Shown piece after piece: positions 1 to 49,830 of a stretch of DNA of 64,000 bases. Under the pieces are notes generated by a model. It made no database searches, was not told where the DNA came from, and was given only the letters and a program-made list of their open reading frames with translations. Where the stretch lies: the NCBI GenBank assembly GCA_028688515.1, contig JAQTXZ010000002.1, forward strand, positions 25,791-89,790. The letters run 5' to 3'. Both the position numbers and the translations under genes were made by a program. The stretch is from Patescibacteria group bacterium (lineage in GTDB: Bacteria > Patescibacteriota > Patescibacteriia > 2-12-FULL-60-25). The first letter of the stretch is position 1, and every line of letters begins with the position of its first letter.

Positions 1-195
1 TTGACTGCACGCGCCGCTCTCACGACCAAAGATGAAGTCTGGAGCTTGGTGCACGACAGATTGGACGCGAAATTCGCCGTGATTGACGAAGATCGCTGGC
101 CTGATTTAGCCAAGATTTTTGCCCAAGATAAGCGATATATCAAGATTGGCGAAGGCGGCGGCGGTATTGCATACAGAGTCGAGGATCAACCCTGA
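1..195 (+). CDS. 3' end of a hypothetical protein (5'-truncated by window edge)
   Basis: Frame is open from position 1 to TGA at 193-195. Third codon positions are GC-rich. No recognisable motif. Confidence 0.35.
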   Translation: MTARAALTTKDEVWSLVHDRLDAKFAVIDEDRWPDLAKIFAQDKRYIKIGEGGGGIAYRVEDQP

Positions 196-208
196 AGTTC
201 TCGAGGGG

Positions 209-237
209 TTGACAAATTCGCAATTTTGTGCTATGTT
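209..237 (+). promoter_or_regulatory. sigma70-type promoter (TTGACA-17-TATGTT, extended -10 TGTGC)
   Basis: TTGACA at 209-214, 17-nt spacer ending TTTTGTGC, TATGTT at 232-237. One of four near-identical boxes (4023, 24719, 40142). Confidence 0.6.
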
Positions 238-342
238 GACGTGTTCTTTGGCTGAAAAGTCAAGAACGAAATCAACAACGCACGTCGACAAATCCCCTCG
301 TAGCTCGAAGAGCGAAGTGGGGTAGAGAAAGGACTAGACATA

Positions 343-1203
343 ATGGCGGCACCGAAGACGGCAGCACCGAAGAAGCATGTCTTGTTGGGATTCGTTGAAG
401 AGGCAGCGGAGTTTGCAACCGGCGTGGTTGCCGGCAGCGCGTTCTCGAGCATCCTCCGAGCCGGCGCATCAGGTCTGATTCGCGGTCTGAAGGGCGGTAT
501 GTTCGAAAAGCTCTTCGGCGGCACGCGTGCCAAGACCGAAGAGGCGAAGGCGGAAGACCTGGCGAAAGCGCCCAAAGATCTCGCCAAGGCGATCGAGAAC
601 GCGAGTGGTGATGCCAAGTTGGGTCAGTTGGCCCAGGAGCATCTCACCAACACGATCGCGATTCAGGTAAGCGGTCGTTCCGAGGCTGACAAGGCCAAGG
701 CGATTGAAGACGAGAAGGCTCGTTACAAGGCCGCGATCAACGAGTATCTGCTTGGCAAGAGCAAGCAGAGCATACAAAACATGATGGCCGAGCTCGCGGA
801 CATAGATGCGGACGCCGTTAGAATTGCTGCAAAGAATTTCAGAACGGCAGGTCGTGAGACCTATCGTGGGGATTTCTTTCAGTGGCTGTTCAACGAACTT
901 TCGCCCTCGCAGCGCGAGATCGTGCTTGCACGTCGTGACAAAATCACGACGGCTCGCATCATCACGGACATGCTGGACTTCAGCGAGAATTTCGCGGAGA
1001 GGTTCCAGTATCTCTCGTTTACGTTGGGCGACCCTGATTGGAAAGGAACACTCAACGAGTTGGCGCGTGCCGCGATGCACGGCTGTCTCGAAGATCATCC
1101 AGCCTATGTGGCGCTCAATGAGGCTTCGTCGCGTAACGTCGCGAGTCGCGAAGATCAAGCAGAGCTGATTGAACGCGGTTTTCGCAACCGCCGCAACATA
1201 TGA
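343..1203 (+). CDS. hypothetical protein with Ala/Lys-rich N-terminus
   Basis: 286-aa ORF in a GC-rich block with high GC3 in this frame. The antisense ORF 469..1485 looks like a shadow. No motif recognised. Confidence 0.6.
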   Translation: MAAPKTAAPKKHVLLGFVEEAAEFATGVVAGSAFSSILRAGASGLIRGLKGGMFEKLFGGTRAKTEEAKAEDLAKAPKDLAKAIENASGDAKLGQLAQEHLTNTIAIQVSGRSEADKAKAIEDEKARYKAAINEYLLGKSKQSIQNMMAELADIDADAVRIAAKNFRTAGRETYRGDFFQWLFNELSPSQREIVLARRDKITTARIITDMLDFSENFAERFQYLSFTLGDPDWKGTLNELARAAMHGCLEDHPAYVALNEASSRNVASREDQAELIERGFRNRRNI

Positions 1204-1219
1204 ATGAAAGGAGGGTCCC

Positions 1220-3175: not shown

Positions 3176-3197
3176 CAGGTTTCGTTCTTACTTACTT

Positions 3198-3240: not shown

Positions 3241-3340
3241 AAAAAATAGCGGACCAAGCGGACTTGCGGACAAGGCGGAAAAAGTGCAAATACGCCTTGT
3301 CCGTTTGGTCCGTATCGTCCGTTTGGTCCGCGTAGTGAGG

Positions 3341-3402: not shown

Positions 3403-3864
3403 ATGAGAATGTACATTTTGACACTAATCGTCGCGGTCGCGGTTCTCGCCGGCTGTACGGAAACGTTTACACGCAGAGCTGACGGGGTCGAGCGGTATCG
3501 CAGCCGCTCCACGAACTATGTCGTTGGCTCAGAGACTGTGATCGAGACCAACGACCAGGTCTATCCGGTCGCGCAGGCCAAGTACGGCCAGATGCCGGGC
3601 AACCTTCAGGACGGGTTTGCCGTCGAAGAAGCCGTCGCGGTGCACCAGCGGACAATGGATAACACGCTCTACCCAAACGGCGTCGGAATGGGCTACAACG
3701 GCTGGGCAGGCGGAGCGCCTGCCGGTTATGGCTACCGGCCATACGTGCTATCGCCTCGGCCGATGTATATGCTCAACCGCGATCAGTACGGCAATTCCCG
3801 TCTGGTCCCTGCCCCGGTCTACTACAACCCCCAGACCAGCTACCCTCTGACCCTAAGATACTGA
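3403..3864 (+). CDS. lipoprotein with Tyr/Pro/Gly-rich C-terminal half
   Basis: Lipobox MRMYILTLIVAVAVLAGC. SD GGAAGGAG upstream. Confidence 0.7.
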   Translation: MRMYILTLIVAVAVLAGCTETFTRRADGVERYRSRSTNYVVGSETVIETNDQVYPVAQAKYGQMPGNLQDGFAVEEAVAVHQRTMDNTLYPNGVGMGYNGWAGGAPAGYGYRPYVLSPRPMYMLNRDQYGNSRLVPAPVYYNPQTSYPLTLRY

Positions 3865-4190: not shown

Positions 4191-4649
4191 ATGCTCACCA
4201 ACACCTGTCGTCTGTTGTCTGTTGCCTGCTGTCTGCTGTCCGTCATCTTCGCCGGTTGCCACCAGAATGCGCCTCGGACGTCGCACAGTGTCGTCGACAT
4301 CCAGGGCAGGAAGTGCGAGGAGATGCGAACTCTTGTCGACAACGGCCGGAATCGTGACTTCGCATATTCCTACAACTGCGAAGGCGGTGGTCCGCCGTTG
4401 GGTTACATGGCGGCGACTCCGTACATGCAACCCTTCCCGCTCGTAACTCGAGCGCAAGCGGCACTGCTGAACGCGCCGTACAACCCGCCTGACGAAGTTT
4501 GTCAGGACGTGACATACAAGGAGGACGGACAGCCGAAGTTCACTGTTCCGTCGTGGTGCGTCCAGGCGAACACGATCCGCAACACACAGACTCAACCTCT
4601 AGTTCAACCGACGTCGCGCAAGAGCGCACGTGTAAGGAGTTCCCGATGA
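4191..4649 (+). CDS. lipoprotein
   Basis: Internal ATG at 4191 is preceded by CCGGAGG. Lipobox LLSVIFAGC. The longer TTG-started ORF (4023) would begin inside the promoter box. Confidence 0.6.
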   Translation: MLTNTCRLLSVACCLLSVIFAGCHQNAPRTSHSVVDIQGRKCEEMRTLVDNGRNRDFAYSYNCEGGGPPLGYMAATPYMQPFPLVTRAQAALLNAPYNPPDEVCQDVTYKEDGQPKFTVPSWCVQANTIRNTQTQPLVQPTSRKSARVRSSR

Positions 4650-5443
4650 AAAAGTACATCACGTGCATTGCGTACATCACGTTCATCGCGTTGGTTGCTG
4701 GTTGCGGTCAGGGTGCGATGCGATCCCCGGAGCTGCCAGAGTATGAGCCGTTGCAGCAGGCTCTGCCGCAGACGCAGACAACTTCGACTTCGGAGACGAT
4801 CGTGACCGGTGAGAATGTACCGCGTCAACCTCCGCCGCCGCCCGTTGTGACTCGTGAGTACGGCGATCCGTACTCCAGGTTTCCCGTCGAGTTGAAAGCG
4901 CACGATAACATGTGCGTGCAGGTGTACAACACGACGGCATTCTTCGTCTGCGCGATCTCGCCGACGTACGGAAACGGCATTCCCGTTTTCCGACTGCGTT
5001 ACGGCAATTACGCGCAGGATTTCCTTCCGGTACATCCGGAGTGGAAGGAAGTGCAATGTAACGCCGTGATCGTGCCGAATGAAACCGGCACGGATGACGG
5101 CGCACCCGAGGCATGGTTCGTCGCTGCGCATCCGGGGACGTACAGGATGATCTTCAAGATGTACACGGACGACGGAAACGGTCCGCAGTACACGGGGATC
5201 ACCAAGTCGAGCGAGGCTTGGGCATTTCCGAATGTCCACGCTTTGGACAGAACGTGCCCCAGTTGGTTCCGGCTCGGGTGCTTGCGCCACTATCCGGTGC
5301 GCGCTTCGCTCGAAGACAAGTCAGCCGGTGGTGCCTACGCTTACGTCCTGTTCCAGGACGGGCCCGGCAGCGTCGACGTGCTGTCTATGTTCGATCCCGC
5401 TCTGTCCTCGGCGCTCGCCGATGGATTCCTCGCGATGCGGTGA
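4646..5443 (+). CDS. lipoprotein
   Basis: ATG at 4646 overlaps the upstream TGA (ATGA). SD TAAGGAG. Lipobox ITFIALVAGC. Confidence 0.7.
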   Translation: MKKYITCIAYITFIALVAGCGQGAMRSPELPEYEPLQQALPQTQTTSTSETIVTGENVPRQPPPPPVVTREYGDPYSRFPVELKAHDNMCVQVYNTTAFFVCAISPTYGNGIPVFRLRYGNYAQDFLPVHPEWKEVQCNAVIVPNETGTDDGAPEAWFVAAHPGTYRMIFKMYTDDGNGPQYTGITKSSEAWAFPNVHALDRTCPSWFRLGCLRHYPVRASLEDKSAGGAYAYVLFQDGPGSVDVLSMFDPALSSALADGFLAMR

Positions 5444-9254: not shown

Positions 9255-10490
9255 CTAGTTGGCGGAACTGAATTCGCTCAAGCGCCACTGACCGTGTTCG
9301 AAGGTCCAGAACAACTCGACGTTTTTGCCGTGAAGACTCACGTTGATGCGTACGTCTTCACCTTCGTCGAGTACGTTGTCCGAGGGGCTGATGTTGTCGC
9401 ATCTCTCGCCGGTGAGAACGCCGTTGCCGTCGTTGAAGAGCTCGAGAAGATACTTGGCCAGGGAGACCTTCATGCCCAGATACGGGTCATTGAGGAAGAC
9501 CTTCATCGCGTTTTCATCGTCGGCGTACTGATTGAATGCCGGTAACCCCTTCTGCGCCACCAGCTTGTAGGAGATCAGGGCGAGCAACATGTCAACGCGT
9601 GGCTTTGCCGATGACAGTTCGCTTACCAATTTGTAGCACGAGTCCTTGAGATGCGCGGTCATCCATTTGGCATCGGACCGGCTGGCGTGGATGGTCTCGG
9701 CGGATTGCACAGCCGCTTGGATTGCCTCGCCGGGAACGGCTACGTATACCTCGTGGTGCTGGGTGACGATAGCGGCGTTCACGCCGATGACTTGGTTGTC
9801 GGTCGTTACCAGCGGTCCGCCGCTCGAGCCGGGGTCGATCGCCGCAGTGTGCTGGATCCAGCAGAACTTTTTGCCGCTGTCGGTGATCTGATCGTCCTGC
9901 AGGCAGCGGTTGGAGACGTTGCCGCGCGTGATTTGGAAGTTGCCTTTCCTACCCATGGCGGGATAACCCACCGCGTTCACAACCTGAGACTCAGTGTACG
10001 TTGTTGTGACTTGGAGCCCGGGCACGGTGGTCGGAATCTCCAACACTGCCAGATCGTAGTTGTTGTCGATGAACAGGATCTTGGCAGTGATGTTGGTGTT
10101 TCCGCCGTCGAACGAGACCTGGGGCTTGTCGGAACCCTCGACCACGTGACGATTTGTCACCACCAGAGAATAGCCGCCGCCGGTGCGCGCCGTCACGAAG
10201 CCGCTGCCGCTCGCTTCGCGCAGAGCGTAGCTCATCAGGAACGCGCGGAACTGCTGGGAGAGGTCGCTGTCGTTGCTGATATTTAGGAACAGGTTGCGCA
10301 ACTCCATGGGAGTTGGCACCTGTATTAAGGCCGTTGAGGCCTTTGGATCTGCGGCAAGCGCGGTTGCCGCGGCCGACTGGCTGACAGTCGGCACAGGGGG
10401 CATCTCACCTCCTGTTCTCCCCGTTTTTTCGGGGCCGCAGGCAATGATCATGAGCGCGAACATCACGAACATCATTCCAAATTTCCTCAT
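9255..10490 (-). CDS. trypsin-like (S1 family) serine peptidase lipoprotein
   Basis: Start at MRKFGMMFVMFALMIIACG (lipobox) with AAAGGAAG upstream. Catalytic-triad contexts TNRHVV, DLAVLEI and DPGSSGGPLV. GC-rich gene between two tRNAs. Confidence 0.8.
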   Translation of the reverse strand: MRKFGMMFVMFALMIIACGPEKTGRTGGEMPPVPTVSQSAAATALAADPKASTALIQVPTPMELRNLFLNISNDSDLSQQFRAFLMSYALREASGSGFVTARTGGGYSLVVTNRHVVEGSDKPQVSFDGGNTNITAKILFIDNNYDLAVLEIPTTVPGLQVTTTYTESQVVNAVGYPAMGRKGNFQITRGNVSNRCLQDDQITDSGKKFCWIQHTAAIDPGSSGGPLVTTDNQVIGVNAAIVTQHHEVYVAVPGEAIQAAVQSAETIHASRSDAKWMTAHLKDSCYKLVSELSSAKPRVDMLLALISYKLVAQKGLPAFNQYADDENAMKVFLNDPYLGMKVSLAKYLLELFNDGNGVLTGERCDNISPSDNVLDEGEDVRINVSLHGKNVELFWTFEHGQWRLSEFSSAN

Positions 10491-27885: not shown

Positions 27886-28314
27886 TCAGTTGACGGCGAC
27901 GAGCGAGGGGGAGGGTTGGGCGGAGACGTGGGGCTTCGAGGCGGGCGCGAGAGCGGGAACGATGGTCGAGACGGAGACATGGTTGCGTTCGCGTTCGGTG
28001 GACGCGTTGATCGCCGCCGCCAACTGGGCGATGAGATGTTTCGTGCGCTTGGTGTCTTCGCCACGTGGGAAGGAGAGCATGATGAGCGCTCTACGAGCGT
28101 GGACGTGTGGCCCGGCGGCGATCAGGTCATGCCGCACGACCGCCTTCGCTGCATCTGCCAACATTTGGCGTGTATGAGACCATGCCAGATTGTTCGGTTC
28201 CATGCCGATCATCTCGATGAGTACGGAATCCAGGTAATCCAGGCCAGGCAGATCGCGGTGTCGCGCATTCTCGTGGATGATAAAAAATTGTCTACTGATC
28301 TCTGAAAGAGCCAT
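27886..28314 (-). CDS. hypothetical protein (GC-rich)
   Basis: ATG is 5 nt after GGAGG. Its own promoter lies at 28383-28411. The overlapping plus-strand ORFs look like shadows. Confidence 0.6.
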   Translation of the reverse strand: MALSEISRQFFIIHENARHRDLPGLDYLDSVLIEMIGMEPNNLAWSHTRQMLADAAKAVVRHDLIAAGPHVHARRALIMLSFPRGEDTKRTKHLIAQLAAAINASTERERNHVSVSTIVPALAPASKPHVSAQPSPSLVAVN

Positions 28315-28554: not shown

Positions 28555-28629
28555 GCGGGTATCGTATAGTGGCTATTATGCGACCTTGCCAAGGTCGAGA
28601 GGCGGGTTCAATTCCCGCTACCCGCTCCA
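28555..28629 (+). tRNA. tRNA-Gly(GCC), CCA encoded
   Basis: GCGGGTA/TACCCGC acceptor stem, anticodon arm CGACC-TTGCCAA-GGTCG, T-arm GGCGGGTTCAATTCCCGCT. Confidence 0.9.
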
Positions 28630-28743
28630 ATCCAGAGGCCGGCCGAATGGCCGGCTTTTGCGTTGGTTGAGAGAGGATTCCTCGGGAGCCTTGGTGACCG
28701 CTTTCTTCCTGTTACCCGCCTTGGTGGCCATTAGGTGACCATT

Positions 28744-31983: not shown

Positions 31984-32516
31984 CACGGTGCTCCTTTGCC
32001 TCCCACGAATACCGAAATCGACGCCAAGGACCGGGCATGCTGAATCGAAGCCGTACATTGTTGTGCACAACTTTCGATTATCTCGTACGCGGCACCGAAC
32101 TGCGTCCAACTGAACGTGAATCTACCATCGTCACTCTCGTACTCAGACGTTGATTCCTCGACGACAGGAGTACCTGGTACGTGGAATCCGACCTTCGTCG
32201 CGCTGATGTAAACGGAGCGGCCTTGGTAGTCCGCCGCGAAAGCGTACCCGCCCGCGTCCGAAATTAGCTTTCCGTTCCTGAGTAGCTCGACTTGTCTTGG
32301 GAGCAGTACCGGTACCGGCGACATGGCAACTGCCGCTTGACTCTCCGGAGGCAGCAGCGCGAAGGCGAGCTCATCCGGCTTGTCAGCCGGCCAAGTTATG
32401 TCAGCCTGAAATCGCTCAGGCGTCACCGGGCGTTGAAGGACGTCACTTGGTCGATTGTCGCTCCTCCCGCAGCCAGTCAAGACCAGTGCAATAAGCCCAG
32501 CTAGCACGAGCGTCAT
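31983..32516 (-). CDS. lipoprotein, unknown function (alternative start 32564)
   Basis: Lipobox LIALVLTGC. The TGA overlaps the ATG of the M23 gene by 1 nt (TGATG). Confidence 0.6.
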   Translation of the reverse strand: MTLVLAGLIALVLTGCGRSDNRPSDVLQRPVTPERFQADITWPADKPDELAFALLPPESQAAVAMSPVPVLLPRQVELLRNGKLISDAGGYAFAADYQGRSVYISATKVGFHVPGTPVVEESTSEYESDDGRFTFSWTQFGAAYEIIESCAQQCTASIQHARSLASISVFVGGKGAP

Positions 32517-32658
32517 CGGTTCGAAGGGTGCAACGCGCCTGGGGAGCGAATGGAGTGGCGGCATAGTACCCAATATGGAATACCAATCGCGACCAATAGT
32601 CAACAGGCAGGGATTGCCGGCTCGTAGGCCACGTGTTACGTCCAGACTGCAAGATCGC

Positions 32659-32845
32659 TCAGTCAGGGATAGTTGGTGCGCCGGCCTCGAGGTCAGCTTC
32701 GCGGATGCGCACCAGGCGCCCGATTGCGGAAGTGTGCCATGTCGCCTCGGGCGAGCAGGGCGTACACGCCGGAGGTCGCCATGTTGAGGCGACGGGCGAC
32801 ATCCGAGGCTGTGAGCAAGCGCGTGGATTGAATAACAGTTTGCAT
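32659..32845 (-). pseudogene. frameshifted excisionase/MerR-type HTH gene
   Basis: MQTVIQSTRLLTASDVARRLNMATSGVYALLARGDMAHFR continues in another frame as IGRLVRIREADLEAGAPTIPD. The span is 187 nt, i.e. one extra base, near 32721-32727. Confidence 0.6.
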
Positions 32846-33252
32846 ATAGTATTGTAGAGATAGGAATCAGGCCCCTCCTTCCTCCTCGCCACGCGCGGGT
32901 GGCGCACGACAGCGGGTGGCGCACGACTTGACGGCGATCGCCGCGTGCGGTGAAATATCGGCATCGGATGCATAATGCCGCGTACATTAACACCAATTGC
33001 GCCCCTGAAAAGGGACGCTGGCGGTCGCCAATATTTCAAGATGCCGCCCTCGCGAGGGGGTGCTCTCATCTCGAAACCATGGTGACCGCTTTGGTGACAG
33101 GAATGTCGCGCACGAGACGTTTTGTAAACCGACTGGCCAGACGGTGACCCTGGCTGAAAGCCGCTCTGCTGCGTGCAATCAGTGCGTCTCCGTCGTGCTC
33201 GATCGGGCACGACGACGCGCTTCGGCAAGTTCAATTCCCGCTACCCGCTCCA

Positions 33253-34484: not shown

Positions 34485-37280
34485 ATGTCATATCCGTATA
34501 AAGACTTTGAATCAAAATGGCAGGCTTGGTGGGAGGAACAGGGCGTTTACCATGCCAAAGAGGCGATCGATGCGGAAGGTGAAAAATTTTACGGCCTTAT
34601 TGAATTTCCATATCCATCGGGCGAAGGTTTGCATGTCGGGCATCCGCGTTCGTATACGGCGATAGACATTATGATGCGCAAAAAGCGCATGGAAGGAAAA
34701 AATGTTTTGTATCCGATAGGCTGGGATGCATTTGGTTTGCCCACGGAGAACTTCGCCATCAAAACAAAACAGCCGCCGGCACAAGTTACTGCTAAAAACA
34801 TCGCGAATTTTACGCATCAGATAAAAATCCTCGGCGTTGGTTTTGATTGGTCGCGCGAGATAAACACGACGGATCCCAAGTATTATCATTGGACACAATG
34901 GATGTTCATCAAGTTTTTTGATTCGTGGTTTGATGAAAAGTCGAACAAAGCACGTCCCATAAATGAGCTTATAATTCCAAAAGAAGTTGAAGAACAAGGT
35001 ATTGATGCAATGCGAAAATACCGCGACGATCGTCGCATGGCGTTTAAGCAGAAGACGGAAATCAATTGGTGTCCCAAAGATAAAATAGGACTTGCCAACG
35101 AAGAGGCTGCCGGCGGAGTTTGCGATCGCTGCGGCGGTCCTGTTGAAAAGCGCGAAAAAGAACAATGGATGTTGCGCATCACAGATTACTCGCAACGGCT
35201 CATCGACGAACTCGGGCAGGTCGACTATTTGGATAAGATAAAAACCTCGCAAGTAAATTGGATTGGGAGAAGCGAAGGCGCATCCATTCGGTTTGTCATT
35301 TCGGTTTCTTCTGTCATTTCGACCGAAGCGGAGAAATCTCAGAACTTAAAACAGTATACCAGCAAAGAGATCTCTCGACTGCGTAGGACTTCGCTCGAGA
35401 TGACAAAAGAGGATGACAATGCGGTCGAAGTTTTCACCACGCGCCCCGACACAATCTTTGGCGCAACCTATCTCGTTCTCTCACCCGATCATCGACTCAT
35501 CGCGCAATGGTTGGAAGACGGGACGATTGAGAATGCGAAGGATGTCAAAGCCTATCAAACTAAGACGAAAAAGAAATCTGATCTTGAACGTCAGGAGAAT
35601 AAGGAAAAAACAGGTGTTGAGCTCAAGGGCGTGACAGCCATCAACCCCGCGACAAAAAAAGAAATTCCAATCTGGATTGCAGATTACGTTCTCTCGGGCT
35701 ACGGCACCGGCGCCATCATGGCTGTGCCTGCGCATGACGAGAGAGATTTTGAGTTTGCCAAGAAGTTTAAGTTGCCTGTAATTAAAGTTGTTGAACCGCC
35801 GATTTTGGATACGATGTTCAGTCAAGACGTCGCAGTGTCCAAAGGATTGCAGGGAAACGTCAAAGTCAAAGCAGAATGTTGGATAGGAGACGGTGTCGCG
35901 GTTAACTCCGACTTCCTCGACGGACACGATACGTCCAAAGCCACGGAAAAAATTATAAGTTGGCTTGAGAAGAATAAAGTCGGGGAAAAGAAAGTCACGT
36001 ATAAACTTCGCGATTGGGTTTTTTCTCGTCAGCGTTACTGGGGCGAGCCGATTCCGATGGTCAACTGCGATCATTGCGGTTGGGTGCCGCTAGATGAATT
36101 CGAATTGCCGTTATTGCTTCCGGAAGTCAAGAATTATGAACCGACTGACACGGGCGAATCGCCGCTGGCGACAATGACGGATTGGTTAAAGGTCAAATGT
36201 CCGATTTGCGGAGCGAAAGCCAGACGAGAGACTGATACCATGCCTAACTGGGCTGGTTCATCTTGGTACTTCTTGCGTTACTGCGACCCGCACAATGAAC
36301 AAGAGTTTGCATCAAAGCATGCGCTTAAATATTGGATGCCAGTCGACCTCTACAACGGCGGCATGGAGCACACGACTTTGCATCTTTTGTATTCGCGATT
36401 TTGGTACAAAGTGCTTTTTGATCTTGGTTACATTCCGTCATCTTGCGGCAACGAGCCTTATTCGATGCGTAGGTCTCACGCCATGATTTTGGGCGAAGGT
36501 GGAATCAAAATGTCCAAGTCAAAGGGCAATGTGGTCAATCCGGATACAATGGTAGAGCAATATGGCGCCGATGTTTTTCGCACTTACGAAATGTTCATCG
36601 GTCCGTACGAAATGGATGCGCCGTGGAGCACAAAAGACATCCTCGGCGTCCGTCGCTTTTTGGATAAAGCATGGAATTTATCGCTAACTCAAATTAAGAA
36701 TTATGAATTAAGAATTAAGAATGACGGCGAGTACGCGTTGAGGGCGCCAAAGGACGTTGCAGGACGCGTTGAGGACGTTGTTAAGACGTTGAGCCTTCCC
36801 GGTATCGACTCGGAAGACGTTCAGCCGTACGATTATATTTTGAATTACTCGATCAAAAAAGTCGGTGAAGACATCGACAACATGCGATTTAATACCGCTG
36901 TCTCGCAGTTGATGATTTTGACCAATGAGCTGCAAGGTAAGCCGATGCGCTCGCGCGATGTCCGATCTTATTTGAAGCTCATCGCGCCTTTTGCGCCGCA
37001 TATGGCGGAAGAACTTTGGCATCAACTCGGCAACGACTCGTCGATTCATCTGGAAGCTTGGCCGCAGTTTGATGCGACAAAGATTGTTGAGACGGAAGTT
37101 ACGATTGCGGTGCAAGTCAATGGCAAGTTGCGCGGCAGCATCAAAGCCCCATCCGGCGCGGACGAGACGGTTGTGCGCAAGACGGCCGAATCAGAACCAA
37201 ACGTCCAAAAACATTTGGAAGGCAAAACAATCAAAAAAGTCATTTACGTCAAAAATAAAATTTTGAATTTTATAGTTTAA
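34485..37280 (+). CDS. leuS: leucine--tRNA ligase
   Basis: PYPSGEGLHVGH (HIGH) and KMSKSKGN (KMSKS) motifs with a CP1 editing region. Carries two in-frame repeat-derived inserts. Confidence 0.97.
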   Translation: MSYPYKDFESKWQAWWEEQGVYHAKEAIDAEGEKFYGLIEFPYPSGEGLHVGHPRSYTAIDIMMRKKRMEGKNVLYPIGWDAFGLPTENFAIKTKQPPAQVTAKNIANFTHQIKILGVGFDWSREINTTDPKYYHWTQWMFIKFFDSWFDEKSNKARPINELIIPKEVEEQGIDAMRKYRDDRRMAFKQKTEINWCPKDKIGLANEEAAGGVCDRCGGPVEKREKEQWMLRITDYSQRLIDELGQVDYLDKIKTSQVNWIGRSEGASIRFVISVSSVISTEAEKSQNLKQYTSKEISRLRRTSLEMTKEDDNAVEVFTTRPDTIFGATYLVLSPDHRLIAQWLEDGTIENAKDVKAYQTKTKKKSDLERQENKEKTGVELKGVTAINPATKKEIPIWIADYVLSGYGTGAIMAVPAHDERDFEFAKKFKLPVIKVVEPPILDTMFSQDVAVSKGLQGNVKVKAECWIGDGVAVNSDFLDGHDTSKATEKIISWLEKNKVGEKKVTYKLRDWVFSRQRYWGEPIPMVNCDHCGWVPLDEFELPLLLPEVKNYEPTDTGESPLATMTDWLKVKCPICGAKARRETDTMPNWAGSSWYFLRYCDPHNEQEFASKHALKYWMPVDLYNGGMEHTTLHLLYSRFWYKVLFDLGYIPSSCGNEPYSMRRSHAMILGEGGIKMSKSKGNVVNPDTMVEQYGADVFRTYEMFIGPYEMDAPWSTKDILGVRRFLDKAWNLSLTQIKNYELRIKNDGEYALRAPKDVAGRVEDVVKTLSLPGIDSEDVQPYDYILNYSIKKVGEDIDNMRFNTAVSQLMILTNELQGKPMRSRDVRSYLKLIAPFAPHMAEELWHQLGNDSSIHLEAWPQFDATKIVETEVTIAVQVNGKLRGSIKAPSGADETVVRKTAESEPNVQKHLEGKTIKKVIYVKNKILNFIV

Positions 37281-37489: not shown

Positions 37490-37948
37490 ATGACGAACGC
37501 AGTGGTAATCGATGACACGAAACAGGAAATTGCCCAGACCGGAACCGACAGTGTCAACGCGGTGTGTCTGCACTGCCGCGGCGAACTGACCGAACTGCAA
37601 CCCGAGGACAGGTTGGTGTGGGACTCCAAGCACAATACTGTGGAACTCACTCGCCGCAACGGCGAACCGATCGTCCTCGTGCTTTCGCCGAAAGTGAAAC
37701 TGACGCAATGGCCTGCCGATCAGACCAACGACATCTTCGGGCTTGGCGCCTGTGGCACCTTGCAGGCGTTCGAGAGGCTCGCCACAAAGGCAGGGTTCAG
37801 ACTGCGCAAGCTCACAAGTCCCGCGCCGGTAAAGCCGAAGAGGTGGAAGACCAAGGAGGAAGAAGAGGCGGAGAAGAACGCTCCCGTCTACGTCTGTTTC
37901 ATGTTCCAGAACATGGGGTCTTCGCCCGCCATCTCATCCCGTCGCTGA
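37490..37948 (+). CDS. hypothetical protein (GC-rich)
   Basis: ATG is 5 nt after GGGAGG. No motif recognised. Confidence 0.55.
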   Translation: MTNAVVIDDTKQEIAQTGTDSVNAVCLHCRGELTELQPEDRLVWDSKHNTVELTRRNGEPIVLVLSPKVKLTQWPADQTNDIFGLGACGTLQAFERLATKAGFRLRKLTSPAPVKPKRWKTKEEEEAEKNAPVYVCFMFQNMGSSPAISSRR

Positions 37949-38000: not shown

Positions 38001-39287
38001 ATGAAAATTACTATCATTGGCACAGGCTACGTCGGATTGGTCTCCGGCGCATGTCTTGCAGAACTTGGGCATCAAGTCATTTGCCTGGATGTTCAAGTCG
38101 AAAAGATTGAGATGTTGAACCAAGGTAAGATGCCGATTTACGAGCAGGGCTTGGACGAGCTTGTCCATCGTAACGTAAAAGCCGGGCGTTTGAGCTTTAC
38201 GTCATCTTACGAGCAGGCGATTCCAGGCATGGAATTGATTTCCATGGCCGTCGGTACGCCTTCGGCGGATGATGGGTCTGTTGATATGCAATACGTCTGG
38301 TCTGCGGCGCGTGAAATCTCCAAGCACTTGACCGATTATGTCGTGATTGCGGACAAAAGCACTGTGCCTGTCGGTACTGCGGAAGAAGTAGAAGAGATTG
38401 TTCGAGAGGGGTCGGGGATTCTGTGCGATGTTGTTTCCAATCCGGAATTTTTGCGCGAGGGACACGCCGTGTTTGATTTTTTGCAGCCGCCGCGGATAGT
38501 TATCGGCTCAAATTCAAAACGCGCCACGGAAACAATGCTGCATGCATACGAGCATGTCGATTGCCCCAAGTTTGTCATGGACAGGCGCAGCGCAGAACTG
38601 ACAAAATATGCGGCCAATGCTTTTTTGGCGACCAAAATCAGTTTTATAAACGAGATGGCCATGCTGGCGGAAGAATTGGGAGCTGATGTCACTCAAATCG
38701 CGGCAGGCATCGGTTCTGACCCGCGCATCGGCAAAGATTTTTTGCGCGCCGGGCTTGGCTGGGGAGGCAGTTGTTTTCCAAAAGACGTGCGCGCCATCCG
38801 CAAGATGGGGGAGAGCCTCGGCGTGCCGCTGCCTATAGTTAATGCAGCTTTTGAGACAAATGCGGGGATACGCAAAAGAGTCATTGATAGGCTGGAAAAA
38901 GCTCTCGGCAGTCTTAATGACAAAAAAGTTGCGGTTCTCGGCCTTGCGTTTAAAGACAATACGGACGACACGCGCGAGTCCGCGGCGATTGATTTGATTC
39001 GCCACCTAAAATCACGCGGTGCAGATGTGCGAGTCCACGATCCTGTTGCAAAAGTTTGTTCTCGCGAGACAGACGGCCACGAGCTTGAACATATCGCCTG
39101 CCCTTACGAAACTTGCCGCGATGCGCACGCCGTCATCATTGCAACGGAATGGGAACAATTCAGGACTTTGGATTTGGCGCGGCTCAAAGAAATCGCCGAG
39201 GGCAACATCTTGGTTGACGCCAGAAATCTTTTTGATCCCGCTCGCGCGCTGGAATGCGGCTGGCGTCACATCTCGGTGGGGAGATGA
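38001..39287 (+). CDS. ugd: UDP-glucose 6-dehydrogenase family protein
   Basis: N-terminal MKITIIGTGYVGLVSGACLA Rossmann motif. GWGGSCFPKD catalytic Cys region. Confidence 0.9.
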   Translation: MKITIIGTGYVGLVSGACLAELGHQVICLDVQVEKIEMLNQGKMPIYEQGLDELVHRNVKAGRLSFTSSYEQAIPGMELISMAVGTPSADDGSVDMQYVWSAAREISKHLTDYVVIADKSTVPVGTAEEVEEIVREGSGILCDVVSNPEFLREGHAVFDFLQPPRIVIGSNSKRATETMLHAYEHVDCPKFVMDRRSAELTKYAANAFLATKISFINEMAMLAEELGADVTQIAAGIGSDPRIGKDFLRAGLGWGGSCFPKDVRAIRKMGESLGVPLPIVNAAFETNAGIRKRVIDRLEKALGSLNDKKVAVLGLAFKDNTDDTRESAAIDLIRHLKSRGADVRVHDPVAKVCSRETDGHELEHIACPYETCRDAHAVIIATEWEQFRTLDLARLKEIAEGNILVDARNLFDPARALECGWRHISVGR

Positions 39288-39292: not shown

Positions 39293-40057
39293 TTAGCTTG
39301 TCAGTTTCCACATTTCCGCAAAAACGGTTCTTAAGTTTTGTGCCAAGGCGGGATCGCGCATTTCTATCAGATAGTGCGGGGACTGACGCACGTTGACGGT
39401 GATAACGTATTCGCCGACAATCCAAAGACTGCCCGTGAAAACATGTTCGCCTTTCCAGAATCTGATTTCGCGTCTTTCGGGCATGCGATTTTTTAATTCG
39501 TGTTCAATTTTTTCGTCATTGCTGAAAAGTTTTAACAGAATTTCTTTTGGCGCCAGTTCCCAATACCAGCTCAACCACTCGGTCGAATATTGTTTGATGA
39601 AATCGATGTCATTGTAACCCCACCAGGTTTTATCGGTCGCCATCAAGCTCGCATTCCAAACGTCGTTACGTTGTTTAAAATACTGTTGGATTCTTTGCTG
39701 CGGAATATAAGTAATGGCAGGCGCAACATAACCCGCGGCCGAAGGAGCGGAACGGATTTCTTCGATGGCTTCATTGACCAATTGCTTTTTCTTTTCCAAA
39801 CGAGTTTCTTCCTCCGTGGCCATAGCAGCCAAGGCTTCCGGGGGAGCGGCTACCAGGGCTTTGACCGGAGACGAGAAATCTTCCTGCAACATGCCGTTTG
39901 AGAGCAGCTCTTGTGCCACGCTATAAGTAGTGGTTCTGTTTAAACCGGTTTTTTTGGAAAGATCGGTGTAACTCAATCGTCCGTGTTCAAGTACTGACGT
40001 ATAGACGGTTATTTCTTTTTCCGACAGCCCGATTTTGGCAAGTATGTCTTTAAGCAT
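39293..40057 (-). CDS. TrmB-family transcriptional regulator
   Basis: N-terminal wHTH LGLSEKEITVYTSVLEHGRLSYTDLSKKTGLNRTTTYSVAQEL. Confidence 0.7.
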   Translation of the reverse strand: MLKDILAKIGLSEKEITVYTSVLEHGRLSYTDLSKKTGLNRTTTYSVAQELLSNGMLQEDFSSPVKALVAAPPEALAAMATEEETRLEKKKQLVNEAIEEIRSAPSAAGYVAPAITYIPQQRIQQYFKQRNDVWNASLMATDKTWWGYNDIDFIKQYSTEWLSWYWELAPKEILLKLFSNDEKIEHELKNRMPERREIRFWKGEHVFTGSLWIVGEYVITVNVRQSPHYLIEMRDPALAQNLRTVFAEMWKLTS

Positions 40058-40238: not shown

Positions 40239-40946
40239 ATGTCGGACAAAAGATTTGAAGGTGTGCTCGGTGATGAATATGAGCTCTTTAAGCTCGCACT
40301 ACCTTACTACGACGAGCTGGAAGAGACGATTGGCCGAGCGGTGCGTGAACACTCCGCTGGTCTGACGGCATCTTCCATTGTGGTCGTCGAGGGCGGATGT
40401 GGAACCGGACTTACTACACGGCAGCTTTTGCAAGCTGATCCGCGGGTTCACGTTCTGGCCATCGACAATGAACCGATCATGCTTGTGCAGACGTGCGACA
40501 ACGTCAAAGACGAATGGAACAGGATCGAATTTCGTCGTCGCGATTTGCTGATGGTCTTGCGTGAATTGCAAACCGGGTCGATGGACGTTTTTGCGAGCGG
40601 ATATTTGATTCACAATCTCACGCCGCAATATCGTCGCGACCTGTACGCAGAAATTTCGCGCGTACTCAAACCGGGTGGTTTATTCGTCAACGGCGACAAG
40701 TGCGTTCGTGATGATCCCGTCAGTCAGGTCGAGGATTATCGAATGACGATCGCCGCGTATGATATATATGACACGATTGGCCGTTCCGACTACAAGGCTG
40801 AGTGGATCGAGCACTACGAGGAAGACGAATTGGTACGTTTTACCGAAGCGGAGCAGCGAGGGTTGCTGTCGGCTAATGGTTTTAGCGACGTTCGTCTCGT
40901 GAAACGGTTTGGTATGGATTCTGTCATGACGGCCATGAAGGCATGA
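40239..40946 (+). CDS. class I SAM-dependent methyltransferase (GC-rich paralogue of two cassette genes)
   Basis: ATG after AAAGGAGAGG. Motif I VVVEGGCGTGLTT. C-terminal W..HY..D...L..NGFSDV is shared with 50088..50792 and 51691..52383. Confidence 0.75.
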   Translation: MSDKRFEGVLGDEYELFKLALPYYDELEETIGRAVREHSAGLTASSIVVVEGGCGTGLTTRQLLQADPRVHVLAIDNEPIMLVQTCDNVKDEWNRIEFRRRDLLMVLRELQTGSMDVFASGYLIHNLTPQYRRDLYAEISRVLKPGGLFVNGDKCVRDDPVSQVEDYRMTIAAYDIYDTIGRSDYKAEWIEHYEEDELVRFTEAEQRGLLSANGFSDVRLVKRFGMDSVMTAMKA

Positions 40947-41515
40947 GGAGAATGAACATGAGAAACATCGTCACGATTCCGGTTGTTGTCGCGTGGGCGT
41001 TGGTCGCCGGTGTCGCTACTGCACAGCCGTTCGCTTTGGTGGACGCGGGGCGTAATTCATTCGGCGCAGGTGCGGGTTCAGCCTTTGGTGATGGCAAACT
41101 TCAGCCCGGGTTTCTGGTTGACGTCTTTCATTCGTACGACATGGAGCGTGTTCGTCCTGACACGGAAGCATACGGGGAACTCGCTTGGACGTTGCCGTCC
41201 AACTGGTACTTCATGGGTTTCCTTGGCGGGGGCGCGACGTTCAAGGGTGAGCGAGCGGACGTCGACTGGTCGGCGCGTTCCTTTCTGGTGCTGACGCAGA
41301 CTACGCCCGTTGCGTTTCGTACAAGTACATTCGTGATGTGGACGCCGCGTCATGAAAGTTGGCTCATCGAACAGCGCGTCGGACCGAGCGTCAAACTGCA
41401 CGACACGAGCCATCGACTCTTCCCGTATCTCGCACTCGATGTTACAACGCCTGGCATCAAGCACCGTGCCGACGTCGGTGTCAGTCCTGGTTGCACATTC
41501 ATCATGAATTTCTAA
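40943..41515 (+). CDS. secreted beta-rich protein ending in Phe (outer-membrane-barrel-like)
   Basis: ATGA overlap with the methyltransferase gene (alternative ATG at 40958 after GAGGAG). Signal peptide VVVAWALVAGVATAQP. Alternating hydrophobic pattern. C-terminal ...TFIMNF. Confidence 0.55.
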   Translation: MRRMNMRNIVTIPVVVAWALVAGVATAQPFALVDAGRNSFGAGAGSAFGDGKLQPGFLVDVFHSYDMERVRPDTEAYGELAWTLPSNWYFMGFLGGGATFKGERADVDWSARSFLVLTQTTPVAFRTSTFVMWTPRHESWLIEQRVGPSVKLHDTSHRLFPYLALDVTTPGIKHRADVGVSPGCTFIMNF

Positions 41516-42868: not shown

Positions 42869-43825
42869 ATGCTTATATTGTTTTTCTTTGTCATCGGGAT
42901 GGTTCTGCTGCTTAAAGGCGCGGATTGGCTGGTGGACGGTTCGTCGGCGCTTGCCAAGCGGCTCAAGATTTCCGATATTGTCATCGGTTTGACTGTTGTT
43001 GCTTTTGGGACTTCCGCACCGGAGTTTGTAGTAAATCTCGTATCGAGTTGGCAAGGCCACACGCAGCTTGCAATCGGAAATATTTTGGGCAGCAACATCG
43101 CCAACATGCTTTTGATTTTGGGGGTCGCCGGCACCATCTATCCGTTAACTGTTAAGAGACAAACCATTTGGAAAGAAATACCTTTCAGTTTGTTGGCCGC
43201 GCTGGTTGTTTGGATTCTAGCCAACGACGTTTTATTGGATCATGCGGGCTTGTCTGCGCTGTCCAGAATAGATGGATTGATTTTGCTGTGTTTTTTTGTG
43301 ATTTTTCTTTATTACGTGGTCAACGTCGCATTAAGTTCAAAGTTCGAGAAAGCTGATGATATAAAAAGTATTTCGCTTGGCAAATCGTTTGGTCTCACTC
43401 TGATCGGTTTGATCGGTTTGACGCTTGGCGGCAAGTTAGTGGTTGATCAGGCGGTTTCGATGGCTACCGCGCTTGGCATAAGTCAGTCGATCATCGCGCT
43501 GACGATTGTCGCGTTGGGAACTTCACTGCCGGAATTGTTAACGTCCGCAATCGCGGCTTACAAGCATAAATCGGACATTGCAATCGGCAACGTTGTCGGT
43601 TCAAATATTTTTAATATCTTTTGGGTTTTGGGAGTCAGCGCCGTTATCCGCCCTTTGCCTTTTGATCCGGCAAGCAACATCGACGTGCTGGTCGGCGTCG
43701 GCGCAAGCGCACTGCTGTTTGCATTTATGTTCATCGGCAAAAGACATGTGCTGCAGCGTTGGCAGGCGGGATTATTTGTCGCACTTTACATGGGATATTT
43801 AGCCATGGTCGTGGGGAGGCTGTAG
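42869..43825 (+). CDS. Ca2+/Na+ antiporter (CaCA/YrbG family)
   Basis: Two alpha-repeats: GTSAPEFVV...GNILGSNIANMLLILG and GTSLPELLTS...GNVVGSNIFNIF. Confidence 0.85.
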   Translation: MLILFFFVIGMVLLLKGADWLVDGSSALAKRLKISDIVIGLTVVAFGTSAPEFVVNLVSSWQGHTQLAIGNILGSNIANMLLILGVAGTIYPLTVKRQTIWKEIPFSLLAALVVWILANDVLLDHAGLSALSRIDGLILLCFFVIFLYYVVNVALSSKFEKADDIKSISLGKSFGLTLIGLIGLTLGGKLVVDQAVSMATALGISQSIIALTIVALGTSLPELLTSAIAAYKHKSDIAIGNVVGSNIFNIFWVLGVSAVIRPLPFDPASNIDVLVGVGASALLFAFMFIGKRHVLQRWQAGLFVALYMGYLAMVVGRL

Positions 43826-47727: not shown

Positions 47728-48120
47728 ATGAGTCTCGAGCAACATACAAACGCTTTGCTGAAAGGCTTTCAACCGCCGGTATTTCCCAGTTCCCTCATGA
47801 GCTTGGCGCAAATGCTTGTTCAGATCAATGGATCTGAGCTTGGAACTATTGGCAGAGAACTGCCAGGCTGTACCTGTGTTAAGTCGTTCCTCGAAACATC
47901 CGATGGCTATAGTTGGTACCGTTGCATGTTTTTCGGGTCCGGGGGCGAGATTTGTATCGCCATACCATGGTGTCAGGATTGGGAGAAAACTGACGGATTC
48001 CAATCCGACCGTTCGCCCGCGGTTTACGTCTCGCGCCCGGATGTTCCTTTGGAGAAGATCGATGGCATCATCGAACGTCTCGTTGACAGGCTGGTAGAGT
48101 ACAAAAGAGTAGGTCGATAA
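47728..48120 (+). CDS. hypothetical protein, possibly SMI1/KNR4 (SUKH)-like
   Basis: ATG is 6 nt after AAGGAGG. FPSSLMSLAQMLVQINGSEL fits the loose LPxxLxxLLxxxNG pattern. GC-rich. Confidence 0.35.
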   Translation: MSLEQHTNALLKGFQPPVFPSSLMSLAQMLVQINGSELGTIGRELPGCTCVKSFLETSDGYSWYRCMFFGSGGEICIAIPWCQDWEKTDGFQSDRSPAVYVSRPDVPLEKIDGIIERLVDRLVEYKRVGR

Positions 48121-48223
48121 GCCGCGGCAGGTAAGCTCTCAGTACACCTAGAGCGTCTGGCTCACGGGCAGCTTTTTCTCACCGCTTTTTCTGATCGTTA
48201 CGAGGTCGGGAAGGCGGATTTTT

Positions 48224-48697
48224 TTATTGTTTGCTTTGCTCTGTCATCTGCAATATCGCTTGTTCTAACTTTTCAGGTTCATCGGTTCCTACTCTGTACG
48301 TTCTGCCGTTTTTCAGTTTTATTTCAACCGCATCAAAACCGGAAACATTGTAGATCCACATTTTGGGCCACAGCCATCCTCTGATTCCCCATCCATAATA
48401 CCAATGATTCTTAACGGTATTAGCGGATGTTATTTCATTGAGTAAAAATTTTTTTCGATATATGCCGTAGCCAAATTTGATGCGCAAATATTCTCCGTCA
48501 ACAATCACTTGCAGAGACGCAAAGGAAGCGAGAATAAAGATGATTAACGCCATGACGGTTGTAACGGCAAAATTAGTACCTGAATCAACCGAAGGGGGTT
48601 CGGCGGAAGTTGTGATGTAAGCCCATGCGAAAAGCACAAGTACGACAAGCGTCACAACAAGCATCAGATAGCCGATTTGAGTGTGTTTGTAGCTCAT
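48224..48697 (-). CDS. 2-TM membrane protein with PH-like C-terminal domain
   Basis: Two N-terminal TM helices followed by a beta-rich domain. Confidence 0.5.
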   Translation of the reverse strand: MSYKHTQIGYLMLVVTLVVLVLFAWAYITTSAEPPSVDSGTNFAVTTVMALIIFILASFASLQVIVDGEYLRIKFGYGIYRKKFLLNEITSANTVKNHWYYGWGIRGWLWPKMWIYNVSGFDAVEIKLKNGRTYRVGTDEPEKLEQAILQMTEQSKQ

Positions 48698-48758
48698 AAG
48701 GTTGTGATTTTTGTATTCTTTGTTTATAAAGTACGCCGATGGGAGGAGTTACGCAAAT

Positions 48759-49361
48759 TTAATCGACAACCGTGCCGGTTTTGACTTTTCCGGCTCGCTT
48801 GTAATGAGACATGATTAATCCGCTTGGCGTAACGGTGCTCTCCAACAAGGTAAACGCTGCCGGAATCGCGCCGCCGTCAAACAGTTTTTTGCCTTTGCCA
48901 AGAGTCAATGGATAAACGTTGAGCCAAAGTTCGTCCACCAAGTCGTTCTTAAGCAGAAGTTGGATAAGTTTGCCGCTGCCCCAAACTTTAATGTCAGAGC
49001 CTTTTGAATTTTTTAACTTTTTTATATCCGCCAAACTTTTGAGGAAGATGGAATTTTGCCACGGGGAACTTTTCATGGTCTTGGACATGACGTATTTTGT
49101 TACATCATTAATGCCCGGCCAGGAGTCTGCGTGTTTAGGCCAATAGGAGGCAAAGATTTCGTAAGTTTTTCTGCCCAAAAGAAGATCGGCGGATTCCATT
49201 TGTTTTAACATGACCTTGTTGGAAACTTCGTCTGCAAACGGCGCCGTCCAGCCGCCGTACTTAAAGCCGCCCGAAGTATCCTCATCGGGTCCGCCCGGCG
49301 CCTGCATAACGCCGTCTAATGTGACCATTGATAAAACGATGATTTTTCTCATATCTTTCAC
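48759..49361 (-). CDS. dihydrofolate-reductase-family (RibD C-terminal domain) protein
   Basis: GTG start after GGAG. RKIIVLSMVTLDGVMQAPGGPDED...GGW is typical of this family. Confidence 0.7.
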   Translation of the reverse strand: MKDMRKIIVLSMVTLDGVMQAPGGPDEDTSGGFKYGGWTAPFADEVSNKVMLKQMESADLLLGRKTYEIFASYWPKHADSWPGINDVTKYVMSKTMKSSPWQNSIFLKSLADIKKLKNSKGSDIKVWGSGKLIQLLLKNDLVDELWLNVYPLTLGKGKKLFDGGAIPAAFTLLESTVTPSGLIMSHYKRAGKVKTGTVVD

Positions 49362-49566
49362 CTCCTTGCGTAAACATCGTGTATGCCTAATTTCAGCTTG
49401 CCACTTTGCGATAAAATTGTACAGGGTTGAATTTTTGTTTAACGTTGGTTCTGTCGTCCCCCCGCCGATTGAAGTAAAACGGGGGAGCTGTTAGATTTAA
49501 TATTAATCGTATAATGCAATTGCTTTATTGCGACCATTCGCACTTTGCCTCTAAAGGGAGGGCAAG

Positions 49567-49830
49567 ATGAAAAAGGGTGAATTTGTTGCCGAATACGGCA
49601 CATGCGTACTGATTATCGAGGAAGACGATTTTCCTCTGGATGCGGACAATGTGATGCAGGTCGCTTGGGACTTGGGTGCCGCAGAGCACAACGAAGATCC
49701 TGACAATCCGGACAGCTTGCTCTGGATCCGCTTTCCCGGCAAAGAGGATGAACTGTGCGGCAGCCTTCTTGATTTGCGTAACGCCATCTATTTTGAGGAG
49801 AACAGGCGGTCTCATGCGCGCAACGGCTAA
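49567..49830 (+). CDS. small acidic hypothetical protein
   Basis: ATG after AGGGAGGG. Terminator-like hairpin at about 49852-49878. Confidence 0.5.
   Translation: MKKGEFVAEYGTCVLIIEEDDFPLDADNVMQVAWDLGAAEHNEDPDNPDSLLWIRFPGKEDELCGSLLDLRNAIYFEENRRSHARNG

Follow-up and report, generated by a model that had tools for sequence, protein, structure and literature searches.

Genes with and without Shine-Dalgarno sites side by side in a Patescibacteria genome segment, and GC-rich accessory genes of differing age

Overview

The window analysed here is a stretch of 64,000 nucleotides (nt) from the genome of a Patescibacteria group bacterium (GenBank assembly GCA_028688515.1, contig JAQTXZ010000002.1, positions 25,791 to 89,790), and this report concerns the signals that mark the start of translation in its genes. 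About 30% of the genes in the window carry a canonical Shine-Dalgarno (SD) site, AAGGAGG, 5-7 nt upstream of the start codon, and most of these SD-led genes are lineage-specific ORFans that encode lipoproteins, membrane proteins and secreted proteins, plus small proteins. Strong SD sites are associated with high G+C content (GC) in the window, and a contrast in start signals between conserved and accessory genes extends across the clade. One GC-rich island is inserted at a tRNA gene, and a second GC-rich block has kept an abrupt compositional switch at its boundary in distant relatives. On balance we lean, with some reserve, towards the reading that two native modes of translation initiation exist side by side in this lineage and that the SD-led mode goes together with a set of GC-rich accessory genes that differ in age. 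The core genes (efp, leuS, ugd, trxB, ruvB, the ATPase and transporters) would then initiate without an SD site, a subset of them from leaderless transcripts, and the SD-led minority, mostly accessory ORFans, would be read by a ribosome that still uses SD sites. Most, not all, of the accessory SD-led genes of this lineage would be written in a GC-rich codon dialect, and their origins would be mixed: a recent island at tRNA-Gly, two lineage-specific inserts and an old, maintained block, called block A here.

Start signals and composition of the window

The P-type ATPase gene of the window matches two metagenome-assembled genomes (MAGs) of Patescibacteria, also known as the candidate phyla radiation (CPR), at 94% and 63% protein identity. 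The closer of the two (L001, the sister genome) is collinear with the window over 11.7-28.6 kb at about 85-94% nucleotide identity, a stretch that takes in two of the GC-rich blocks, and the host belongs to a lineage of Patescibacteria. The standard genetic code is used, with TGA as the stop codon of 16 of the 51 genes.

The 18 nt upstream of 51 curated starts were scored for their duplex energy with the 16S rRNA tail ACCUCCUUA, a strong SD being defined by an energy of -8.5 kcal/mol or lower. The energies are bimodal, with about one third of the starts near -9.4 kcal/mol and two thirds near -0.5 (Gaussian mixture models with one, two and three components gave Bayesian information criterion (BIC) values of 311.9, 303.4 and 284.3). 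Strong SD sites precede 8 of the 13 genes with a GC of at least 0.55 and 6 of the 38 others (Fisher p = 0.003), and the GC of third codon positions (GC3) is correlated with duplex energy over the 51 starts (Spearman -0.51, p = 1e-4). Random 18-mers reach -8.5 kcal/mol at 1.3-2.1% of positions whatever the GC class, so GC content does not by itself produce the SD sites. An unbiased count of 5-mers upstream of the starts places AAGGA, AGGAG and GGAGG at the top, about 20-fold over expectation (p ~ 1e-9). The spacer between SD and start codon is 5-7 nt in 11 of the 15 SD-led starts; it is 9 nt at 40958 and 49352, 4 nt at 61864 and 14 nt at 61552 (minus strand), where the distance of GGAGG from the ATG led us to treat the case as ambiguous.

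The original prediction, made from the sequence alone, was that the window holds two gene populations, AT-rich genes without SD sites and GC-rich genes that all have one, the latter acquired repeatedly from a GC-rich, SD-using donor. In substance the observation largely holds; the claim was too absolute. The ten SD sites that had been listed (1220, 3403, 4191, 4646, 25449 with a GTG start, 28314 on the minus strand, 37490, 40239, 47728 and 49567) are all present, their GGAG core lying at the canonical 5-7 nt before the start, and the five SD-less contexts that had been quoted (efp at 27587 and the ATPase at 23340, both minus, leuS at 34485, ugd at 38001 and trxB at 43885) are exact. Quantified anti-SD complementarity and codon usage both split the genes as proposed, but GC3 per gene is not significantly bimodal (two components are not favoured, BIC -67.3 vs -66.3), and a third, AT-rich population had been left out. 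Nor does every gene of the GC-rich blocks have an SD: four GC-rich genes are without a strong one, namely the first gene of block A (343-1203, -5.3 kcal/mol), a trypsin-like protease gene (9255-10490, -6.3), the island lipoprotein gene at 32516 and the RRM gene at 34130. Three of the genes counted as members of GC-rich blocks (40239, 47728 and 49567) do have their SD, but together with 49352 (minus) they have a native GC of 0.46-0.52, which places these four SD-led genes outside GC-rich DNA. Start contexts inspected informally by eye show SD-led genes both first in an operon and internal, and the internal genes at 13898, 46010, 57929 and 60395 (all minus) have no SD; since both kinds occur internally, operon position was rejected as the cause of SD presence.

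The GC of the window is 47.4% overall and spans 31-65% in 1-kb windows. Pfam annotation separates three groups, namely core genes (efp, leuS, ugd, trxB, ruvB, the ATPase, transporters, a flippase, an O-antigen-ligase-like protein and SpoIID), many ORFans and an AT-rich defence-type island. Relative synonymous codon usage (RSCU) also yields three populations, the backbone, the GC-rich genes and the AT-rich defence island at 50-62 kb, which stands apart in the comparison. The RSCU correlation is 0.92 between the two halves of the backbone, 0.63-0.85 among the GC-rich sets and 0.19-0.47 between GC-rich sets and backbone. In the GC-rich genes both NNC and NNG codons are raised, two-fold families included.

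Start signals in related genomes

SD sites are kept across orthologues: that of the 651-amino-acid (aa) membrane protein gene of block A in five lineages at 44-85% aa identity, that of the protease gene in two CPR-like contigs (L088 and L090), and that of a small open reading frame (ORF) at 26182 in the sister genome. This conservation suggests that the SDs are used in this lineage, and SD conservation and spacing across the five lineages point to a probable working anti-SD in the host ribosome. The premise of an SD-less host was too simple, since SD-led genes of native GC occur both here and in relatives, with conserved SDs. In L088 (50% GC) and L090 (63% GC) the protease orthologues have strong SDs; the protease and several hypothetical or secreted genes are SD-led there at the same GC as their SD-less neighbours, and the genes for L31, RF-1, S2, EF-Ts, iPGM and CysRS have no SD. 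In L008 (55% GC) the RRM, leuS and ugd genes have a GC3 of 0.66-0.72 yet are SD-less, and an ORF inserted between leuS and ugd is SD-led.

Across 81 independent related loci, retrieved via leuS, an SD precedes the first ATG in 10.7% of the genes. The proportion is 2% among genes with homologues in at least three other loci and 14% among genes with none (odds ratio 8.1, p = 2e-8). The lack of SD sites in core genes is a clade-wide inherited trait.

Block A, an old GC-rich block

Block A (343-5443) follows a gene of backbone composition, of which the window holds the 3' end (Table 1). At the same gene boundary in L004, L006 and L007, an SD-less gene with a GC3 of 0.47-0.49 gives way to SD-led genes with a GC3 of 0.65-0.82. 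The orthologues of the upstream gene have no SD, start behind a TATAAT or TATACT box and lie downstream of T4SS_pilin genes. The 651-aa protein is 85% identical to its orthologue in L004, 49% in L006 and 44% in L007, and divergence is equal on the two sides of the boundary (50-55% identity for the upstream gene vs 45-49% for the GC-rich genes). The recurrence of the switch at the same boundary, together with this equal co-divergence, excludes for block A a single transfer followed by neutral amelioration. The block is old and not the fading trace of one transfer, and its GC difference must be maintained by something, be it selection, biased gene conversion in a surface-gene module that recombines, or an ongoing exchange of genes in an accessory pool of higher GC.

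Homologues of block A were found in Patescibacteria-type or unnamed contigs only. A prophage origin was considered and rejected, the block having neither PHROG matches nor a relative among viral contigs. A sequence search of solved structures with the 651-aa protein and a 334-aa protein gave no match. The membrane protein and lipoproteins of block A may belong to a pilus or secretion apparatus. Directly upstream of the block-A orthologue in L004, positions 1-7091 hold seven tandem T4SS_pilin (PF18895) genes and a 578-aa ORFan.

Insertions and the origin of the GC-rich genes

An Rfam scan of the whole window at the gathering score identified four tRNAs only, and no rRNA in the 64 kb. That these tRNAs (Ser, Val, Leu and Gly) are neighbours of GC-rich genes, as had been proposed, is borne out. 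The island next to tRNA-Gly starts at 28630, the base right after the 3' end of the tRNA gene, and its flanking repeats (28606-28629 and 33229-33252) are identical over 24 nt, and at 27 of 29 positions over a longer repeat. The sister genome, at about 88% nucleotide identity, has instead a different 201-aa ORF (L001 positions 3935-4540) between tRNA-Gly and the Pro_CA_2 gene, and this other cargo makes the site a variable hotspot. The island is genuine foreign DNA, inserted recently at the 3' end of tRNA-Gly. Its large secreted protein has an M23 domain in the N-terminal half; the best named relatives of this domain are in Myxococcota (Sorangium, Myxococcales and Bradymonadia, 41-47% identity), and the island probably came from a Myxococcota-like gene pool. 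No integrase domain was found in any ORF of the island. When the four tRNAs of the window were checked, tRNA-Ser, tRNA-Val and tRNA-Leu showed no duplicated 3' end and no integration signature, so that the proposed link between GC-rich blocks and tRNAs amounts to insertion at tRNA-Gly and to neighbourhood at the other three.

Two further segments are absent from relatives. In L009-L011, leuS and ugd are directly adjacent, with no gene corresponding to 37490-37948 between them, and the segment 39293-41515 lies between ugd and a YibE/F gene, which are neighbours in the same three loci. Both are probably lineage-specific acquisitions. The last gene of the second segment (40958-41515) encodes a signal-peptide protein that ends in Phe as outer-membrane beta-barrels do, which is odd for a CPR cell; CPR cells are thought to be monoderm-type, without an outer membrane. 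This protein has no Pfam match, and its single-sequence AlphaFold model was unusable, with a predicted local distance difference test (pLDDT) score of 29.6.

The protease gene lies between the 5' ends of tRNA-Ser and tRNA-Val. Its closest matches (39-51%) are on CPR-like contigs, including L088 and L090; among named matches, those in Myxococcota reach 31-33% and that in Patescibacteria 30%. Gene by gene, the relatives fit a foreign GC-rich source for the M23 protein of the island, but give no clear pointer to one for the protease, or for block A with its Patescibacteria-type or unnamed relatives. Presence is likewise patchy for the island, 37490 and 39293-41515, but block A, 25449 and 28314 are common to relatives. 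Repeated acquisition from GC-rich donors therefore stands for the island and probably for the two inserts, and fails for block A, which is old.

Start regions of the SD-less genes

A perfect -10 box lies exactly 6 nt before the ATG of four genes in the window (23340 and 40057 on the minus strand, 23507 and 42869 on the plus strand), and about five weaker boxes lie at 5-8 nt. The L002 orthologue of the P-type ATPase has TATACT at the same distance from its ATG as in the window, and in L004 and L006 a -10 box at the same 6 nt also precedes the gene that adjoins block A on its upstream side. Among 632 SD-less genes of the 81 related loci, -10 boxes scored with a position weight matrix peak sharply at 6 nt, with 39 over a background of about 13. 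This promoter geometry suggests that a subset of the SD-less genes is transcribed without a leader. The remaining SD-less genes have a box 25-34 nt upstream or follow directly on the preceding gene, and some have short A/T-rich leaders; the distant boxes and gene-after-gene starts mean that SD-independent initiation on leadered mRNA must also occur.

The RRM gene directly upstream of leuS keeps this arrangement in L008 and L009, and a longer overlapping ORF at 34089-34403 is a shadow. Tandem repeats with units of 7-9 nt (e.g. TTAGTCA x3 and GGACTTTAT x3) were observed just upstream of three SD-less genes, at 18640-18700, 20075-20120 and 33478-33502. Short tandem repeats are not enriched upstream of SD-less genes (3 of 51 vs about 3% of controls).

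Weighing the explanations

Several observations weigh against the reading with two native initiation modes. Some starts in GC-rich ORFs were picked via a lipobox, a signal peptide or overlap with the upstream gene, and the choice was partly informed by the SD itself. The survey of the 81 loci used a home-made gene caller and first-ATG starts. In it the link between GC3 and SD is weak (rho -0.11 to -0.15) and accessory genes are on average not GC3-richer; this weak link reduces the rule for the clade to a core that is SD-free and a share of accessory genes that is SD-led, and makes the strong GC coupling particular to the lineage of the window. For L005-L007, the composition covered is that of the block-A locus. 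Of about 35 SD-less genes, no more than 4-9 have a convincing -10 box at leaderless distance. Avoidance of internal SD-like motifs, in a test without power, was no stronger than that of control motifs (z -0.4 to -2.0). Finally, a related CPR contig (L063) holds a complete 16S gene (1629-3254, minus strand) whose 3' end, GGATCATTCTAAAAGG, has no CCUCC, which matches the published loss of this anti-SD motif in a subgroup of Parcubacteria (Tsurumaki et al. 2022, PMC9297842). All 15 genes called on L063 have a first ATG without an SD.

The strongest competitor keeps more of the original prediction: an SD-less host would have taken up genes repeatedly, often at tRNAs, and SD sites and high GC would be undecayed signals of GC-rich donors. 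We regard it as possible, though rather unlikely. It would account for the tRNA-Gly island, with its direct repeat, its absence from L001 and its Myxococcota-like M23/MopE protein, for the inserts at leuS/ugd and ugd/YibE, and for the codon dialect common to the GC-rich sets. It also gains from the clade-wide confinement of SDs to genes without homologues in other loci, from the one relative without an anti-SD (L063) and from the signal-peptide protein with a C-terminal Phe, unexpected in a monoderm-type cell. Neutral amelioration, however, should have erased the contrast at block A, which is still there at about 50% protein divergence, and five lineages retain the SD in front of the 651-aa gene. 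SD-led genes of native GC, and SD-led genes in relatives of uniform GC, do not fit donor signals either, nor does an integration signature at one of four tRNAs, nor a protease whose closest relatives are on CPR-like contigs.

Alternatively, SD sites and GC3 could both result from selection for translation efficiency on the most expressed surface genes. The lipoproteins and surface proteins in question are often abundant, the long maintenance of block A would be explained, and the GC3 of SD-led genes slightly exceeds that of their neighbours in L088, in L090 and across the 81 loci. We nevertheless consider this improbable, given that efp and the genes for EF-Ts, S2, L31 and RF-1 are SD-less and not GC3-rich, that G- and C-ending codons are both raised where wobble optimisation predicts C-ending codons alone, and that many SD-led members are tiny ORFans.

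SD-less initiation needs unstructured start regions, and the correlation of GC and SD in the window could therefore mean that GC-rich mRNA folds at the start codon and selects for an SD, so that GC causes SD. This is highly improbable: core genes with a GC3 of 0.66-0.88 in L008 and L090 are still SD-less, those of L008 at 0.66-0.72 ruling out that GC-rich mRNA needs an SD, and the strongest SDs of the window belong to genes with a GC of 0.46-0.52.

An assembly or binning chimera that brought in the GC-rich blocks from another organism, a possibility raised with the original prediction and invited by the strong compositional contrast, the metagenome-type assembly and the tRNAs as possible shared repeats, is very unlikely indeed and the least probable explanation of all, because the junctions at 25.4-28.6 kb recur in L001 (NCBI MAG), the block-A junction recurs in the independent assemblies of L004 (JGI) and of L003, L006 and L007 (Logan), and the island is bordered on both sides by target-site-type repeats of only 24 nt.

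Other features of the window

The coordinates of the features are given in Table 1. The region 24440-26800 spans 2.4 kb, and under code 11 all of its ORFs are shorter than 120 aa. An alternative genetic code was tried for this ORF-poor stretch (24.4-26.8 kb) and rejected, as reading TGA as sense yields no ORF longer than 213 codons. The region, which is conserved in L001, contains at about 25905-26045 GC-rich hairpin units whose copy number differs from that of L001, and at 26069 a promoter-like site (TTGACG-N17-ATTATT) is followed by a leader with two hairpins and then by the ORF at 26182. In L001 this ORF has 73 aa, owing to an indel between CGATGGGC repeats. For the minus-strand ORFan starting at 28314, the L001 translation implies the same SD. 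An Rfam search of 24.4-28.7 kb at E <= 1 found no family beyond tRNAs for the ORF-poor region; a His_leader-like match of 40 bits (cut-off 49) overlaps a terminator hairpin and was dismissed.

The AT-rich defence-type island encodes two S-adenosylmethionine (SAM) methyltransferases, a pair formed by an S8 peptidase and an AAA ATPase, a nuclease with GmrSD_N and HNH domains, and an EcoRI-like adenine methylase. A tyrosine recombinase gene (61864-62679) forms its boundary, and ComEC follows.

Table 1. Positions of genes, tRNA and islands in the window, with composition and start signals (SD, Shine-Dalgarno site; energies in kcal/mol).
Feature	Position	Strand	Remarks
3' end of backbone-GC gene	1..195	+	GC 0.48, GC3 0.49
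First block-A gene, 286 aa	343..1203	+	GC3 0.67; weak SD (-5.3); orthologues in L004, L006, L007
Polytopic membrane protein, 651 aa	1220..3175	+	GC3 0.76; SD AAAGGAGGG
GC-rich lipoprotein	3403..3864	+	Lipobox LAGC; SD GGAAGGAG
GC-rich lipoprotein	4191..4649	+	Lipobox FAGC; SD CCGGAGG
GC-rich lipoprotein	4646..5443	+	Lipobox VAGC; SD TAAGGAG
Trypsin-like S1 protease lipoprotein	9255..10490	-	GC3 0.77; moderate SD (-6.3)
P-type ATPase	20794..23340	-	SD-less core; TATAAT ends 6 nt before ATG, leaderless-type
SBF-family transporter	23507..24439	+	TATAAT + 6 nt + ATG, leaderless-type
93-aa ORF, GTG start	25449..25730	+	GC3 0.82; SD AAAGGAG; kept in L001 (91% aa)
35-aa ORF	26182..26289	+	SD AAGGAGGA; structured leader, promoter-like site upstream
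efp	27024..27587	-	SD-less core gene
GC-rich 142-aa ORFan	27886..28314	-	SD TGGAGGT; kept in L001 (81% aa)
tRNA-Gly(GCC)	28555..28629	+	Last 24 nt (28606-28629) are the left direct repeat
GC-rich island, 4.6 kb	28630..33228		GC 58-65% (vs 47%); absent from L001
Secreted M23 peptidase, 1079 aa	28744..31983	-	At least 5 MopE-type Cys-rich repeats; SD GGAGGCAAAGGAG
Island lipoprotein	31983..32516	-	Lipobox LTGC; no SD; stop overlaps start of next gene
50-aa ORF	32693..32845	-	Weak excisionase-type HTH_17 match, E = 7.6e-4, below curated cut-off
Right copy of tRNA-Gly 3'-end repeat	33229..33252	+	Direct repeat
RRM-type RNA-binding protein, 89 aa	34130..34399		Directly upstream of leuS; GC3 0.61; SD-less
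leuS	34485..37280	+	SD-less core gene, SD-less too in 55%-GC relative L008
GC-rich 152-aa ORFan	37490..37948	+	SD GGGAGG; between leuS and ugd
ugd	38001..39287	+	SD-less core gene
TrmB-type regulator	39293..40057	-	TATAAT + 6 nt + ATG, leaderless-type
SAM methyltransferase	40239..40946	+	Native GC 0.52; SD AAAGGAGAGG
185-aa GC-rich protein	40958..41515	+	Signal peptide, C-terminal Phe; SD GAGGAGA
Na/Ca exchanger	42869..43825	+	TATATT + 6 nt + ATG, leaderless-type
ORFan	47728..48120	+	Native GC 0.50; SD AAGGAGG
RibD_C-domain protein	48759..49352	-	Native GC 0.46; strongest SD of the window, AAGGAGGTG, -12.7
87-aa ORF	49567..49830	+	GC 0.52; SD AGGGAGG
AT-rich defence-type island	50088..61573	-	31-39% GC, mostly SD-less; third codon population

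Relation to known systems and biological meaning

Islands at tRNA 3' ends, CPR genomes poor in SD sites and leaderless genes are known kinds of thing. The tRNA-Gly island resembles other genomic islands of this class in adjoining a tRNA, in its repeat of 24-29 bp, atypical GC, foreign-looking cargo and excisionase-like remnant; it differs in having no integrase, in its small size (4.6 kb, two or three genes), in its CPR host and in its Myxococcota-like cargo. SD-independent initiation is known in Bacteroidota, and genomes that mix leaderless and SD-led genes are known from Actinobacteria and Deinococcus ('group C' of GeneMarkS-2). The window resembles the mixed genomes in its -10 box at a fixed 6 nt in a subset of genes and SD sites in others. 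In contrast, most of the SD-less genes here are off the leaderless distance, operon-internal genes are also SD-less, and the split runs between core and accessory genes, not between first and internal genes of operons. In the literature searched, no paper was found that links leaderless initiation with Parcubacteria or Patescibacteria.

The amelioration model for genes gained by horizontal transfer was reportedly proposed by Lawrence and Ochman in 1997. As that model would have it, accessory genes in the window stand out by atypical GC and codon usage, and the AT-rich defence island and the tRNA-Gly island fit it; block A does not, with a GC3 of 0.65-0.82 beside a neighbour at 0.47-0.49 at about 50% protein divergence. 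The closest parallel to the SD-less genes is the anti-SD loss of Parcubacteria, whose conserved genes are likewise SD-less with A/T-rich upstream regions and which the 16S of L063, without CCUCC, resembles; here, in contrast, about 30% of the genes keep conserved canonical SDs, concentrated in accessory genes, and the published work reported the rRNA motif and not a split between gene classes (Tsurumaki et al. 2022, PMC9297842). The split in initiation between core and accessory genes across a clade, and a compositional switch that survives deep divergence, look new.

Translation start by the ribosomes of CPR/Patescibacteria, which are missing several proteins and in some lineages the anti-SD, has barely been described. 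A bolder form of our reading holds that translation runs in two channels, one SD-independent or leaderless for the core and one with strong SDs for accessory surface and host-interaction genes written in a selected GC3-rich dialect. We regard it as doubtful; if it were true, the ribosome could switch the whole accessory set on or off together, e.g. through anti-SD availability. If the core is SD-free and accessory SDs are conserved, gene finders with a single model of the ribosome binding site will misplace starts, and genes of the accessory, host-interaction set would be recognisable by their SD. The tRNA-Gly island exemplifies the entry of Myxococcota-like DNA into a CPR genome, and block A casts doubt on dating horizontal transfer by composition and points to an unknown force that acts gene by gene.

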